Counted from the first letter of the stretch, positions 21,673 through 26,525 are shown. The stretch is DNA of 32,000 nucleotides from Ktedonobacterales bacterium (GCA_030167145.1 CP126532.1:4440001-4472000), one strand, 5' to 3'. Program-made: numbers and translations. Notes: generated from the letters alone by a model not told the origin.

Positions 21673-22968
21673 CTACTCCACCAGCACCCGCAGCGCCCCC
21701 TGCCGCGAGAACGCGCCAACCGCGCGCCGCTGCGCCGTGATGACCACCGCCACATCCTCATGCGGCTCACCCAGCAGCGATTTCAGAGCTTCGAGCACCA
21801 GCGTATCTTCCGCGACCATGATCGTTGGTGGCCGCGCAAGCGTCTCAGCGGTCACGTGCTCCGGCTGATTGTGCAGCGCGGCCACCACCTGCGCCGGCGC
21901 ATGCGAGACAAACCGCCTCCACACGCCCGAAAGCCCTCCGTCGGTGCGCGGCGTGATCGGCGCGAGCAGCGCGCGATCATCTATGACTCCGCGCAGCGCA
22001 CCATCTGCCCCCACCACCAGCGCCAGCCGCAGCGGCGAGCGATCCAGCGCGGCCACCACCTCGCGCAGCGGCGTCTCACCCGGCAGCAGCGGCAACTCGC
22101 GCTCAGCCAGCGCGCCCGCCGTCAGTCGTTCCCCAGCCCCCGGCAACACGCACAGCCGCAACGTCGCCTCCGCTGGCTGGCTAGCGGGCGTCCGGCCAGA
22201 TGGCGCGACGATGGCCGCCAGAATATCACGTTCGGCCAGCATCCCCACCAGCCGTCCCTGCGCATCCACCACCGGCGCGCGGGTCACTCCCCGTTCCGCC
22301 AGCAAGCGCGCCGCCGCGCCCAGTTCCATGCCGCTTGGCATGGTCACTGGCTCCGCCAGCATACGCTCGCCAACTGTGCGCCCCGCCGCCAGCCTACCCA
22401 GATATGCGCGTATATCCGCTGGCGTCCGCAGGGCCGCCACCCGTGCTCCGCCCACTTGCCATTCCGCATCGCCACCCGCCAACACATGATCGAGTGTCAG
22501 CACCCCCACCACCACATCGCCCACCGCGACCACCGGTAACAGCCGCGTGTCGCCTTCCAGCAGCCGCGCCAGCCCCTCGCTTAATGGCGTCTCTGGCTGC
22601 ACGGCGATCCCAGGTGGACGCATCTCGTCGCGCACCAGCAGATGCGTCGCCGGAAAGTAGAGTCGTGTATCTGCGACGGTCAGCACGCCCGACGTCACCA
22701 GTGCGGCGATCTGCGGCAGCAGCGGCTCGATGCGGTCCGCGCGATCCACGATCTCGATAATCAGCGGTAGGTCGTCGCCAAGGTCCACATGCCCCGATGT
22801 ACGCATCCCACCGTGCGGCGTGAACCCTTCGAGCGCGCGTGTCACCGTCATACCCGCCAGCCCATGGCGGCGCACCAGCGCGAACAGCGCATCTTGCGTG
22901 GACTTGCTTCCAGCGCGGGCGCGCTCATGGGTCAACACACGAACCGTCAGACCAGGGAGCCAGGGCAT
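21673..22968 (-). CDS. DUF190 (PII-like, UPF0166) domain fused to four CBS domains (two Bateman modules)
   Basis: ORF 21673-23004. I prefer the ATG at 22968, 6 nt after AGGAGG. The N-terminal ~110 aa match the DUF190 pattern (LTVRVL...GLAGMTVTRALEGFTPHGGMRT...DLPLIIEIVD...IEPLLPQI). Four CBS-like units follow, each ending in a motif such as VGVLTLDHVL, VGMLAERDIL, RGVIDDRALL or VGAFSRQGAL. It starts 81 nt downstream of the antiporter gene on the same strand. Confidence 0.8.
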   Translation of the reverse strand: MPWLPGLTVRVLTHERARAGSKSTQDALFALVRRHGLAGMTVTRALEGFTPHGGMRTSGHVDLGDDLPLIIEIVDRADRIEPLLPQIAALVTSGVLTVADTRLYFPATHLLVRDEMRPPGIAVQPETPLSEGLARLLEGDTRLLPVVAVGDVVVGVLTLDHVLAGGDAEWQVGGARVAALRTPADIRAYLGRLAAGRTVGERMLAEPVTMPSGMELGAAARLLAERGVTRAPVVDAQGRLVGMLAERDILAAIVAPSGRTPASQPAEATLRLCVLPGAGERLTAGALAERELPLLPGETPLREVVAALDRSPLRLALVVGADGALRGVIDDRALLAPITPRTDGGLSGVWRRFVSHAPAQVVAALHNQPEHVTAETLARPPTIMVAEDTLVLEALKSLLGEPHEDVAVVITAQRRAVGAFSRQGALRVLVE

Positions 22969-23049
22969 ATGGCGCCTCCTGTCCACCAGTGGCACAGTGT
23001 TCACTCCGTATCATACGCCACCGGCGACATACGCGCATGCCGCCTCCCA

Positions 23050-24285
23050 TTACTCGTCGAGGATGCCCGCGACCTCGGCAACCTCTTCCGGTGTCTCTGT
23101 CGGAGTCTCAACTTCGCCCGCCACCGGCCCGGCCTCGCCCAGTTCCACGCGCGGACGGAAGAACGATTGCGCAAAGAGCGTTGGCACTACGGCGCTGAGG
23201 ATCACGACCGTCACCAGCACAGTATATTGCGTCTGATTGATGTAGCCATGCGCCAGGCCGAATAGCGCCGAAATCGAGCCGAAGGTGAGGCCCGTCGCCA
23301 TCAGCAGCGTCGTATAGTTGCCCACGCGCGGTCCCAGGCCAAAGGGGCGCGTCAGCGGACGGATGCCGATGATCTTAGTCAGCATCTTCGTGAAGAAGAA
23401 CACCGCCACCAGTCCTGCGCCCGTCGCCGTCAGCAGCGCCGGCAGCGAGACTAGCGAACCGGCTTTGAGGAAGTAGAACGGCGTCAGCAGCGCGAACGCC
23501 GTCGAGCGCATCCGGTCCATCAGCACGCGGTTATGCATGAACGTCCCCGCGATCACTAGCCCGATGAGGTACGCGGGCAACACCGCCTCGCTGCGGGCAA
23601 TGGTCGCAAGTCCCCCCAACCCAAAGAGCACCAGGAACAGAAACTTTACCTCCGGCTCGCTCACTCGCCCACCCCAGCGGCGAATCACGAAGCGCGCCGT
23701 CCACGGCAAGATTGCCAGCACCATCCCCGTCACGCCGACAAAAAGCGCCAGCCAGATGTCGTAGTTCGCAAAGAGCACCCCCAGCGCCAGCACCGTGCCC
23801 AGGTCGTTGACAAAGCACGCGGCGAGGATCAGTTTGCCGATTTCGGTGCGGTTCAACCCCGTCTCCACCATCACCGCATACACCACCGCCACCGAAGTCG
23901 TGGAGAGCGCGATTCCCGCGATCTGCGCCGCGTGCAGATTCCAGTGAACGCCCCAATAGGCCACCGCGAACGCACCCAAGAATGGCGCGAAGAAGCCGAC
24001 CGTGCCGATGACCATGCTGGCTCTGAAATGCTTGCGGAACGAGGCGGGATCAATCTCCGCGCCCGCCAGGAAGGTCAGCAGTACACTGCCGAAACCTGCC
24101 AGGAAATTGATCCAGTCATTGGTCTGGATATGCAGGAAGTTGCCCGCCACCACCCCGATGAGAATCTCCGTCAGCGCCACCGAAATACCCGTGCGAATCG
24201 AGATCAGGCTCGCCGCCAGCGCCAGGCCAATCCACAGCGCGGCGATGAGATACATGTTGTCGAACTGCACCGCTGGCAATGTCAT
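23050..24285 (-). CDS. cation:proton antiporter (Na_H_Exchanger / CPA superfamily), membrane domain only
   Basis: 411 aa with RBS GGGAGG. It has about 11-12 hydrophobic segments. Family motifs present: FLAGAEID, ALSTTSVAVV and ACFVNDLGTVLAL (Asn160-Asp161, nt 23803-23808). There is no fused RCK/KTN domain and only a short acidic tail. Confidence 0.9.
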   Translation of the reverse strand: MTLPAVQFDNMYLIAALWIGLALAASLISIRTGISVALTEILIGVVAGNFLHIQTNDWINFLAGFGSVLLTFLAGAEIDPASFRKHFRASMVIGTVGFFAPFLGAFAVAYWGVHWNLHAAQIAGIALSTTSVAVVYAVMVETGLNRTEIGKLILAACFVNDLGTVLALGVLFANYDIWLALFVGVTGMVLAILPWTARFVIRRWGGRVSEPEVKFLFLVLFGLGGLATIARSEAVLPAYLIGLVIAGTFMHNRVLMDRMRSTAFALLTPFYFLKAGSLVSLPALLTATGAGLVAVFFFTKMLTKIIGIRPLTRPFGLGPRVGNYTTLLMATGLTFGSISALFGLAHGYINQTQYTVLVTVVILSAVVPTLFAQSFFRPRVELGEAGPVAGEVETPTETPEEVAEVAGILDE

Positions 24286-24464
24286 CTCTCAAGCCTCCCG
24301 GCCACGCCATCATGCCAGATCCACGCGGCCGCGCGAGTGGATGCCGTGTGGCCGTCGGTGGAGCGCCGGAAATTGCCCAGTGCAAAGTTGGGGAATGCCC
24401 GCACACGAGTAGAGGGGTATGCGCGTATGCTTGACCGCGCCTATGTCGCGGCAATGCTGGCCAC

Positions 24465-24544
24465 AAAAAAACGCCTCTACCGGCGGGCGTTCCCTGCTCT
24501 CACCAAGCGAGAGGCAAGACGCGCCGCGCAACAGCCGGTAGAAG
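24465..24544 (-). terminator. intrinsic terminator forming the expression platform of the fluoride riboswitch
   Basis: The minus-strand RNA reads CUUCUACCGGC...(long interrupted helix with apical CUCUC-GCUUGGU-GAGAG)...GCCGGUAGAGG-CG-UUUUUUU. The 11-nt 5' arm (24544-24534) overlaps the 3' end and pseudoknot strand of the aptamer. The U7 tract is at 24471-24465. Confidence 0.75.
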
Positions 24545-24586
24545 CTATCAGCCCCGTCAGAGGCATTACGCGAGCTTCATCGCGAG
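24538..24586 (-). promoter_or_regulatory. fluoride riboswitch aptamer (crcB RNA motif)
   Basis: The minus-strand RNA is 5'-CUCGCGAUGAAGCUCGCGUAAUGCCUCUGACGGGGCUGAUAGCUUCUAC-3'. P1 is CGCG/CGCG closing the loop AUGAAGCU. P3 is GCCUC-UGAC-GGGGC. The 3' tail is UGAU-AGCUUC-UAC. Loop GAAGCU is fully complementary to tail AGCUUC, giving the pseudoknot. The architecture and conserved letters (GAUG, UGAU, CUAC) match the T. petrophila and P. syringae fluoride aptamers as I recall them, with compensatory changes in the pseudoknot. Confidence 0.82.
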
Positions 24587-24609
24587 CGTGGCTCTAGTGT
24601 TCCTTACAC

Positions 24610-24638
24610 ACTATACGAGCCGTCAGCACCCACGTCAA
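24610..24638 (-). promoter_or_regulatory. sigma70-type promoter driving the riboswitch-antiporter operon
   Basis: The minus strand reads TTGACG (24638-24633), a 17-nt spacer, then TATAGT (24615-24610). The predicted TSS is about 15-20 nt upstream of the aptamer. Confidence 0.6.
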
Positions 24639-25055
24639 TAGTCTCACGCGCCTCTGTTGATATCCAACTAGTATCCGACCGTCCCCGCCTGTCTCCTGCT
24701 GAGGCGGACATTCCTGTACTCCCCTTCCCTCGCGGGGAATGGGTTGGGGGTTAGGTCTCTCGCTCACACACGCCGTATGAAGCTTGCCAACAAATGATGT
24801 TCCTCGACCTGGTTGTCCCCGACTAGTCGGCAGCAACGGCGCTGCTCCCTTACGTTGGGCTAGCACCTGATTAGGTTGTTAAACAACACCATGGCCGCGA
24901 GAACGCGCCCGCGTGATACAATACACTGCCGATTGCCCGCCATCGTCGGTACGCCGCCAGTCACCAGCGCCCACAATCAATTGTCTCGCCAAAGCATCTC
25001 AGGGTAGAGCACCAGCTTAGAAACAGCAGCGCCAGAAAGTTCGAGAATATCAGGC

Positions 25056-26525
25056 ATGAAACCACTTGTCGCCATCGTCGGACGCCCCAACGTCGGCAAA
25101 TCCACCCTCTTCAACCGCCTCATCGGCCAGCGCCTCGCCATCGTCGAAGACATCCCCGGCACCACCCGCGACCGCATCTACGCCGACGCTGAATGGAACG
25201 GCCGCATCTTCACCCTCATTGACACCGGCGGTCTGGAGCTTGCCACCGGCGGCGACTTCAGCGCGCAGATCAATGCCCAGGTGCAGCTTGCCATCGAAGA
25301 AGCCGACGTCATCGTCTTCCTCGTAGACGTGCGCGACGGCATCACCACATCGGACAGCGAAGTCGCTGCGCGCCTGCGCCAATCCAAAAAGCCCGTCGTC
25401 CTCGGCGCCAACAAAGCCGACAACGCCAAGCAGCGCCAGGAATCCGTCGAGTTCTACGAACTGGGCCTCGGCGAACCGATCACCGTCTCCTCCATCTCCG
25501 GCACCGGCACCGGCGACCTCCTCGACGCCATCACCGACGTCCTCCCCCCCAGCGACGGCGACGAAGAAGAAGACGCCACCCCCGGCATCCCGCGCTTCGC
25601 CATCGTCGGACGCCCCAACACCGGCAAATCCTCCCTCGTCAACGCCATCCTCGGCGAAGACCGCGTCATCGTCAGCGACATCCCCGGCACCACCCGCGAC
25701 ACCATAGACAGCGAAGTCGAGCACGACGGCCACAACGTCATCCTGATTGATACCGCTGGTGTCCGGCGGCGTGGGCGTGTCGGCCCCGGCGTCGAAAAGT
25801 ACAGCGTCCTCCGTTCTCATCGCGCCATTGACCGCTGCGACGTCGCCATCCTGATGATTGACGGCGTCGAAGGCATCACCGCGCAAGACACCCATATCGC
25901 CGGCTACATCCACGACGCCGCCAAAGGCATCATCATCGTCATCAACAAATGGGATCTCGTGCGCGAGCGCCGCCGCGCCGCCGAAGACCTCGCCGACCCC
26001 GATCGCCCCGTCTCGCTGGTTCCCGGCGAGAATCCGCCGCAGCTTTCCGCCAAAGAGCAAGAACTGCTCGACGCCAAGCAATATACCCGCGCCGTCCGCG
26101 AGCAGCTCAAATTCGTCCCCTACGCCCCCGTCGTCTTCGCTGCCGCCAAAACCGGCTACCACATGCGCAACATCCTCGACCACGCCCTGCGCATCTACGA
26201 CACCCGCCACGTCCGCATCGCTACCCCCGCGCTCAACGACGTCGTCCGCGACGCCATCCAGCATCATCACCCATCCTTCATTCAGGGCCGCCAGCTCAAA
26301 ATCTACTACGCCACCCAGGCCGAAGTCAGCCCGCCCACCTTCGTCTTCTTCGTCAACGATCCCGCCCTGCTCCACTTCTCCTTCGAGCGCTACCTGGAGA
26401 ACCGCCTGCGCGATGTCTTCGGCTTCGAGGGCACCACCATCCGCCTGCAATTCCGCGCCCGCTCCAAAGATGAAGATGACACCAAAGGCAAGAAACGCCC
26501 GAGCCGCAACGGCGCACGGCGGTGA
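25056..26525 (+). CDS. der: ribosome-biogenesis GTPase Der (EngA), tandem GTPase domains plus KH-like domain
   Basis: 489 aa. There are two G-domains, each with G1 (GRPNVGKST and GRPNTGKSS), DTGG/DTAG and NKxD (NKAD, NKWD). The conserved C-terminal domain is present, followed by a Lys-rich tail. Confidence 0.95.
   Translation: MKPLVAIVGRPNVGKSTLFNRLIGQRLAIVEDIPGTTRDRIYADAEWNGRIFTLIDTGGLELATGGDFSAQINAQVQLAIEEADVIVFLVDVRDGITTSDSEVAARLRQSKKPVVLGANKADNAKQRQESVEFYELGLGEPITVSSISGTGTGDLLDAITDVLPPSDGDEEEDATPGIPRFAIVGRPNTGKSSLVNAILGEDRVIVSDIPGTTRDTIDSEVEHDGHNVILIDTAGVRRRGRVGPGVEKYSVLRSHRAIDRCDVAILMIDGVEGITAQDTHIAGYIHDAAKGIIIVINKWDLVRERRRAAEDLADPDRPVSLVPGENPPQLSAKEQELLDAKQYTRAVREQLKFVPYAPVVFAAAKTGYHMRNILDHALRIYDTRHVRIATPALNDVVRDAIQHHHPSFIQGRQLKIYYATQAEVSPPTFVFFVNDPALLHFSFERYLENRLRDVFGFEGTTIRLQFRARSKDEDDTKGKKRPSRNGARR

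Follow-up and report, generated by a model that had tools for sequence, protein, structure and literature searches.

A divergent crcB-motif fluoride riboswitch predicted in the leader of a Ktedonobacterales cation:proton antiporter operon

Fluoride riboswitches form an established class, with a known mechanism built on pseudoknot, linchpin and terminator and a known link to Na+/H+ antiporters; the element described here is a divergent member of that class. Backbone phosphates and Mg2+ mediate fluoride binding (PMC8752731), an A40–U48 pair acts as the linchpin of the riboswitch (PMC8752731, PMC11077080), and a mechanism combining this linchpin with strand displacement is established for B. cereus crcB (PMC8752731, PMC11077080). 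Using E. coli RNA polymerase, Hertz et al. found that a U–G wobble at the top pseudoknot pair favours switching and that a C–G pair hampers it, and the available portion of that paper does not report a U–A pair as tested (PMC11077080). Na+/H+ antiporters are given as the second most common class of genes under fluoride-riboswitch control in a later account (PMC11139923, citing Baker et al. 2012). The fluorination gene clusters of actinomycetes contain both flH, for a cation:H+ antiporter, and flJ, for a DUF190 protein (PMC9173684). We analysed a 32-kb stretch of Ktedonobacterales bacterium DNA (the window) and conclude with high confidence, from sequence comparison, that a minus-strand element in it is a transcriptional ON fluoride riboswitch placed before an antiporter operon. 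The element carries every structural feature of the family open to testing, falls short in its Rfam score only, and has a junction at the short end of family variation.

The antiporter leader and its aptamer

The leader lies in the 770-bp gap (24286..25055) between the antiporter gene and der, an interval that the first-pass annotation had measured correctly and in which it had also rightly read a minus-strand promoter, TTGACG-17-TATAGT, at 24638..24610. A consensus scan of a 1.4-kb stretch recovered this sigma-70-like site with 10 of 12 positions matching. Its −35 hexamer TTGACG (24633..24638, minus strand) lies at the same aptamer-relative position in two close relatives, L001 and L002, and its −10 hexamer TATAGT (24610..24615, minus strand, 17-nt spacer) is replaced there by TATACC and TATACT with spacers of 17–18 nt. 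The scan returned one site against 0.5 expected in shuffles of the same stretch, which makes the promoter weak as sole evidence; taken alone it is near chance expectation and counts against reading the region as a riboswitch unit. Transcription from this site would start near 24603, ~19 nt before P1.

The fluoride (crcB-motif) aptamer core, which opens with the 5′ strand of P1 and closes with the UAC tail, occupies 24538..24584 on the minus strand and is recognized by both RF01734 and a strict descriptor. P1 (24569..24584) pairs CGCG (24584..24581) with CGCG (24572..24569) and closes an 8-nt loop, AUGAAGCU (24580..24573), that begins with AUG and ends in the pseudoknot 5′ strand GAAGCU (24573..24578). 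The cmscan alignment places a 4-nt P1–P3 junction, UAAU, at 24565..24568, followed by the P3 hairpin GCCUC-UGAC-GGGGC (24551..24564), seen in both sequence and folding and located directly 5′ of the tail UGAU-AGCUUC-UAC (24538..24550). The tail hexamer AGCUUC (24546..24541) is the pseudoknot 3′ strand and pairs with GAAGCU at six of six positions, all Watson–Crick. Every conserved unpaired core nucleotide is present (AUG 24580..24578, UGAU 24550..24547 for the family pattern U-G/A-A-U, and U 24540), and A 24548 and U 24540 are the likely equivalents of the A40–U48 linchpin. The architecture first proposed for the aptamer, comprising P1 with its AUG loop, P3 and the UGAU/UAC tail, therefore stands, as does the loop–tail complementarity, and the one part needing correction is the supposedly A-rich junction, which is only UAAU.

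Compared with a consensus junction of ~7 nt (uuuAACC), the 4-nt UAAU amounts to three deletions against the RF01734 model and counts against the fluoride-switch reading. An equally short junction is found in the above-threshold members L005 (UAUU), L008 (UACU) and L006b (UAAU), so that the short form falls within family variation. The U–G pair in P3 of the window is C–G in both L001 and L002. In many other aptamers the P1–P3 junction holds an additional hairpin (L003:389-457, L007:2358-2426, three in L017, L047:1352-1425, L063:25-100 and others), which the RF01734 consensus treats as an insertion and which the window aptamer does not have.

Within the 770-bp gap, only the aptamer resembles relatives at the nucleotide level, with ~90% identity to L001 and L002. 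The 179-nt spacer between terminator and start codon (24286..24464, minus strand) has neither structure (folding z = +0.64) nor conservation, a search of related loci finding no similarity to it, and GGGAGG stands 8 nt 5′ of the antiporter ATG. On the other side, the ~415 bp that separate the riboswitch promoter from the divergent der (24639..25055) contain no annotated feature or similarity to related loci, and presumably hold the der promoter. Two candidates in this region were rejected. The first, a 90-amino-acid open reading frame (24594..24866, minus strand) terminating at the riboswitch promoter, is most likely non-coding, with a GC3 of 0.49 against 0.82–0.83 in its neighbours and no conserved homolog in the related loci. 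The second, a CRISPR-DR57 match (24718..24754, plus strand; 17.8 bits, E = 0.56), corresponds to a short GC-rich hairpin and was judged to be chance.

Occurrence, covariation and the Rfam score

Loci for comparison were picked by the downstream antiporter protein alone, blind to RNA. A protein-seeded genome search yielded nine loci, two of them Ktedonobacterales MAGs at 80–83% amino-acid identity and the others from Chloroflexi/Chloroflexia, Moorella, Thermoanaerobacter, Syntrophomonadaceae, a Clostridia bacterium and Spartobacteria. An RF01734 match lies just upstream on the gene's strand in all nine, five scoring 38.5–48.3 bits, above gathering, and four Chloroflexota loci scoring 22.2–33.0 bits. 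A metagenome protein-alignment search contributed 80 further loci. Among the 84 loci with enough upstream sequence, our own covariance model or the strict descriptor placed a same-strand aptamer ≤650 nt upstream in 63, and the Rfam model, run on 19 of the 21 apparent negatives, recovered ten more, raising the total to at least 73 of 84 (87%). Many aptamers at orthologous antiporter loci reach 38–61 bits. The window shares this gene context, its aptamer standing upstream of a PF00999 antiporter as in its orthologs, and the aptamer-preceded antiporter clade extends over Chloroflexota, Firmicutes, Verrucomicrobia-like MAGs and metagenomes.

Our covariance model, R1, was built from seven cleanly aligned sequences, MAFFT having misplaced P3 where junctions contain insertions; it favours aptamers with short junctions, and ~10 of the consensus type that were recovered by Rfam escaped it. 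R1 scores the window aptamer at 72 bits, the window being one of its training sequences. The strict descriptor, which requires P1, a 6/6 pseudoknot, P3, UGAU and UAC, produced 57 matches in 53 of 90 sources, including the window, and none in 20 shuffled sets.

Several loci carry additional, tandem or divergent aptamers (L006:2277-2336 and 2391-2451; L017:178-246 on the minus strand, 345-411 and 1372-1441; L005:4158-4233; L064:2761-2813; L077:3059-3117; and minus-strand matches in L024–L026), which would place neighbouring genes under predicted fluoride control as well. At L009:2501-3657, in a Clostridia MAG, the antiporter match contains 13 stop codons in a single frame, which suggests that either the gene is frameshifted or the assembly is at fault; L008 and L009 have identical riboswitches, and the L009 locus was left out of the protein alignment.

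We assessed covariation in 55 distinct aptamers, aligned by a model without a pseudoknot term and unselected on pseudoknot pairing. Standard pairs fill 98.1% of P1, pseudoknot and P3 cells, compared with 41.5–57.3% when 3′ partners are slid by 1–3 columns and 82.6% in column shuffles, and both-side changes occur at 12 of 14 pairs. P1 pairs are 91–100% paired family-wide, all four with both-side changes, and P3 columns are 95.9% paired among the sequences alignable by the model. The pseudoknot columns are 99.1% paired with both-side changes at four of six pairs and with pair types such as GC:33/AU:21, AU:27/GU:14/GC:12, CG:27/UA:27 and UG:26/UA:16/CG:11, which bears out the pseudoknot covariation suggested in the first-pass annotation. 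The window pairs G–C, A–U, A–U, G–C, C–G and U–A are each of a type that occurs in the family.

The Rfam score is the one point on which the element falls short. When the whole 32-kb window was compared with Rfam at gathering thresholds, no family matched. With permissive filters over 24280..25060, RF01734 aligned full-length (model 1–64) to 24532..24593 on the minus strand at 25.9 bits (E = 6.6e-5, or ~3e-3 when scaled to 32 kb by simple arithmetic). The covariance-model hit anticipated by the first-pass annotation is thus present at full length and with a low E-value, but lies under the gathering score of 34 bits, and this counts against the fluoride-switch reading, the gathering score being an operational annotation threshold and no structural feature. 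Points are lost at the three deleted junction positions, the CGCG P1 and the off-consensus pseudoknot letters on both strands. RF01734 treats the pseudoknot strands as independent single-stranded positions and penalises each change separately; we attribute the sub-threshold score to this inability to score the pseudoknot as pairs, together with the penalties on the pseudoknot letters and short junction of a subgroup to which the window belongs.

Scores elsewhere follow the same division. Aptamers of close relatives score 33.0 and 30.8 bits. In 19 sampled metagenomic loci, aptamers of the consensus pseudoknot type GG(A/G)GU(U/C) score 48–61 bits and those of the type GA(A/G)GC(U/C) mostly 21–33 bits, the latter frequently having a shortened junction or one that contains an added hairpin, and both types are found upstream of the same antiporter gene. 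Aptamers of the GA(A/G)GC(U/C) type at 21–33 bits were noted in L010, L017, L031, L032, L047, L051, L060, L063, L066 and L082, ~60–150 nt upstream of the antiporter match. Because the score tracks the pseudoknot type and short junctions occur in above-threshold members, we read the low score as a property of model and threshold and not as decay. The curated Rfam threshold misses a coherent subgroup of genuine-looking fluoride aptamers, known here from Chloroflexota and from metagenomes of soil and sediment, that standard annotation under-calls and that addition to the seed alignment would recover.

Terminator overlap, the proposed switch and alternative readings

Downstream of the aptamer, an extended terminator hairpin of ~73 nt (24473..24545, minus strand) consists of a 12-bp base and a 49-nt interior with its own helix, and folds at −43.9 kcal/mol (MFE; z = −3.6, beating 200 of 200 shuffles). 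The base pairs GCUUCUACCGGC (24545..24534) with GCCGGUAGAGGC (24484..24473) through 12 bp including one G–U, and is followed, after a single G, by a U7 tract (24465..24471, minus strand) that is the sole A/T homopolymer of ≥6 in the 32-kb window (63% GC; 0.23 expected). The terminator 5′ arm takes in five of the six pseudoknot 3′ nucleotides together with UAC and its linchpin U. The leader thereby combines a GC-rich hairpin, a U-tract and an arm overlapping the ligand-fold tail, as in an ON switch, with termination predicted at U7 near 24465. A tail-overlapping hairpin before U7 had been described in the first-pass annotation, whose stem count fell one pair short of the 12 found here; its proposal that pseudoknot and terminator exclude each other is supported by the overlap of the arm with the pseudoknot strand, which is kept in L001 and L002. 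A simple terminator scan limited to loops ≤8 nt called no terminator, and it missed this hairpin because the 49-nt interior exceeds that limit.

L001 and L002 retain the promoter hexamers, the aptamer, the two arms of the terminator (with wobble changes) and the U-run amid diverging flanks; U5-type runs occupy the equivalent place, and the hairpin interior differs yet stays a long hairpin. Terminator hairpins measure ~75–80 nt in these three Ktedonobacterales leaders (window 24473..24545 on the minus strand, L001:685-762 and L002:2066-2146), with variable interiors. Across the family, a tail-complementary arm with a T-run, and thus the same classical logic, accompanies 36 of 57 aptamers, typically with a span of 20–34 nt, compared with an arm-to-arm span of 65 nt in the window and 65–82 nt in the group formed by the window, L001, L002 and L070 (82 nt). 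The atypically long interior counts against the ON-switch reading, and because of the extended hairpin the invading strand would be made ~60 nt later, with a possible kinetic consequence. The top pseudoknot pair of the window, U–A, is shared by 16 of 55 aptamers surveyed and likewise counts against the reading, given the U–G preference reported by Hertz et al.

We propose the following mechanism. The TTGACG/TATAGT promoter would initiate transcription ~19 nt before P1, and the nascent RNA would fold P1 and P3 and dock the loop GAAGCU on the tail AGCUUC as a 6-bp pseudoknot. Mg2+ and fluoride, the predicted ligand, would lock the A(24548)–U(24540) linchpin as well as the pseudoknot, making the tail unavailable as the terminator 5′ arm and letting RNA polymerase read into the CPA2-like antiporter gene and probably the DUF190–CBS gene. 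Without fluoride, GCCGGUAGAGGC would displace the pseudoknot, the 12-bp base would form before U7, and transcription would stop near 24465. A constrained-fold comparison gave −62.0 versus −50.9 kcal/mol with a pseudoknot duplex of −6.3, values that are indicative only, the constrained fold having broken P3 and the energies leaving out the pseudoknot, Mg2+ and fluoride.

The element might be a fluoride aptamer that acts other than through the proposed intrinsic terminator, by Rho-dependent control, RNA stability or some other route, with the hairpin and U7 incidental or serving another role. The 65-nt span lends this some support, as does the existence of other platforms, 21 of the 57 family aptamers having no obvious tail-complementary arm and T-run; however, the 12-bp base abuts the only U-run of its length in 32 kb, and selective retention of arms and U-run around a variable interior in L001 and L002 is difficult to square with an incidental hairpin, and we consider this route unlikely. 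Translational control is argued against by the 179-nt unstructured spacer to the ATG, with the start codon ~180 nt downstream making occlusion of the Shine–Dalgarno sequence by the aptamer implausible. The score and the shortened junction could instead be taken as erosion, the signs of a fluoride-riboswitch relic that is decaying or no longer functions. Such a relic would not be expected to remain ~90% identical to L001 and L002 as the only conserved island of the gap, with all family-invariant positions intact and the pseudoknot fully Watson–Crick; its short junction recurs in above-threshold members, and a whole subgroup sharing its type of pseudoknot persists before the same gene, leaving decay very unlikely.

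The same subgroup features, distinct pseudoknot letters, a shorter junction and sub-threshold scores, would also fit a specificity variant, the fold having been adapted to sense something other than fluoride, and variant classes with altered ligands are known in other riboswitch families. One antiporter clade nevertheless carries consensus-type (48–61 bits) and subgroup aptamers interchangeably, which argues for one signal, and the differences are compensatory helix changes that leave the conserved single-stranded nucleotides (AUG, UGAU and the U of UAC) unchanged; with fluoride held through phosphates and Mg2+ (PMC8752731), we regard a change of ligand as highly improbable. Chance resemblance in GC-rich intergenic DNA, for which the sub-threshold score and the near-chance promoter match might be invoked, is effectively refuted by the comparative data, namely the E-value of the match, the empty descriptor result in shuffled sets and the positional conservation upstream of orthologs. 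Returning to the fluoride ON switch, its identification in the first-pass annotation is supported by the aptamer's recurrence in nine of nine genome loci and at least 73 of 84 overall, by covariation, by the conserved terminator overlap and by a known class of regulated gene. In our assessment this comparative evidence, drawn from sequence, settles the identity of the riboswitch despite the sub-threshold score.

The downstream operon and comparison with known systems

The first gene predicted to be regulated (23050..24285, minus strand) encodes a CPA2-like cation:proton antiporter (PF00999, Pfam 2.9e-37) whose match to the NCBIfam CPA2 subfamily falls below that model's cutoff. A probable second regulated gene (21673..23004, minus strand), identified by Pfam as a fusion of DUF190 and CBS domains, starts 45 nt past the antiporter stop, and the two are probably co-transcribed. 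In 43 of 72 related loci the second-gene position is filled by a universal stress protein; the DUF190–CBS arrangement is common to the window and L047 (L047:2736-4037), and other second genes encode a MutS-domain protein (L004) and a dynamin-like GTPase (L074 and L089). A tblastn search of the window with the partner proteins of other loci, which has limited sensitivity, found no CrcB or Usp homolog.

The proportion of aptamer-preceded loci in this antiporter clade is far above the ~15% and ~30% that PMC11139923 gives for riboswitch control of Fluc and CLC-F exporters, respectively. This near-obligate predicted fluoride control is a residual point of interest and suggests a fluoride-dedicated role for the clade, whose transport function is not characterised in the fluoride literature cited here. 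The clade and its Usp or DUF190–CBS partners may form a dedicated fluoride-response module and, separately, the Ktedonobacterales version may be a kinetically re-tuned switch, two extensions that we advance jointly and tentatively, as possible but on balance doubtful. Under the first, the antiporter may be fluoride-specific and no generic Na+/H+ housekeeping exchanger, and may, for example, counter HF-driven acidification or move a fluoride-linked ion, gated by its CBS/DUF190 partner. Under the second, re-tuning may rest on the U–A top pseudoknot pair and the ~60-nt delay before the terminator 3′ arm.

The window adds Ktedonobacterales to the organisms using a fluoride switch, according to the reading preferred here, and leaves the understanding of riboswitch mechanism unchanged; its further interest lies in the under-called pseudoknot subgroup, the extended terminator and the DUF190–CBS partner gene. 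With the RF01734 crcB motif, represented by the B. cereus ON switch and the T. petrophila crystal structure, the window shares P1 and the 8-nt AUG loop, P3, the 6-bp pseudoknot and the UGAU...UAC tail with its A–U linchpin positions. Its pseudoknot letters are GAAGCU/AGCUUC where the consensus has GGAGUU/GACUCC, and its top pseudoknot pair is U–A, in contrast to U–G in B. cereus; the T. petrophila aptamer has C–G. As in B. cereus crcB, the terminator 5′ arm coincides with the pseudoknot 3′ strand, an overlap read from sequence in the window and consistent with ligand-gated strand displacement. Relative to other RF01734 members it scores low (25.9 bits), has a 4-nt junction where ~7 is usual, and bears a ~73-nt terminator with a 49-nt interior in place of the typical 20–34-nt span. 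In the fluoride-controlled Na+/H+ antiporter operons described in PMC11139923, as in the window, a PF00999 antiporter lies directly downstream of the aptamer, whereas the second gene, usually Usp in the related loci, is a DUF190–CBS fusion in the window and L047. The pairing of an antiporter with DUF190 in a fluoride-related context resembles flH/flJ at the level of protein family, and the actinomycete genes belong to fluorometabolite biosynthesis clusters for which the paper describing them reports no riboswitch (PMC9173684), in contrast to the aptamer-preceded antiporter operon of the window.
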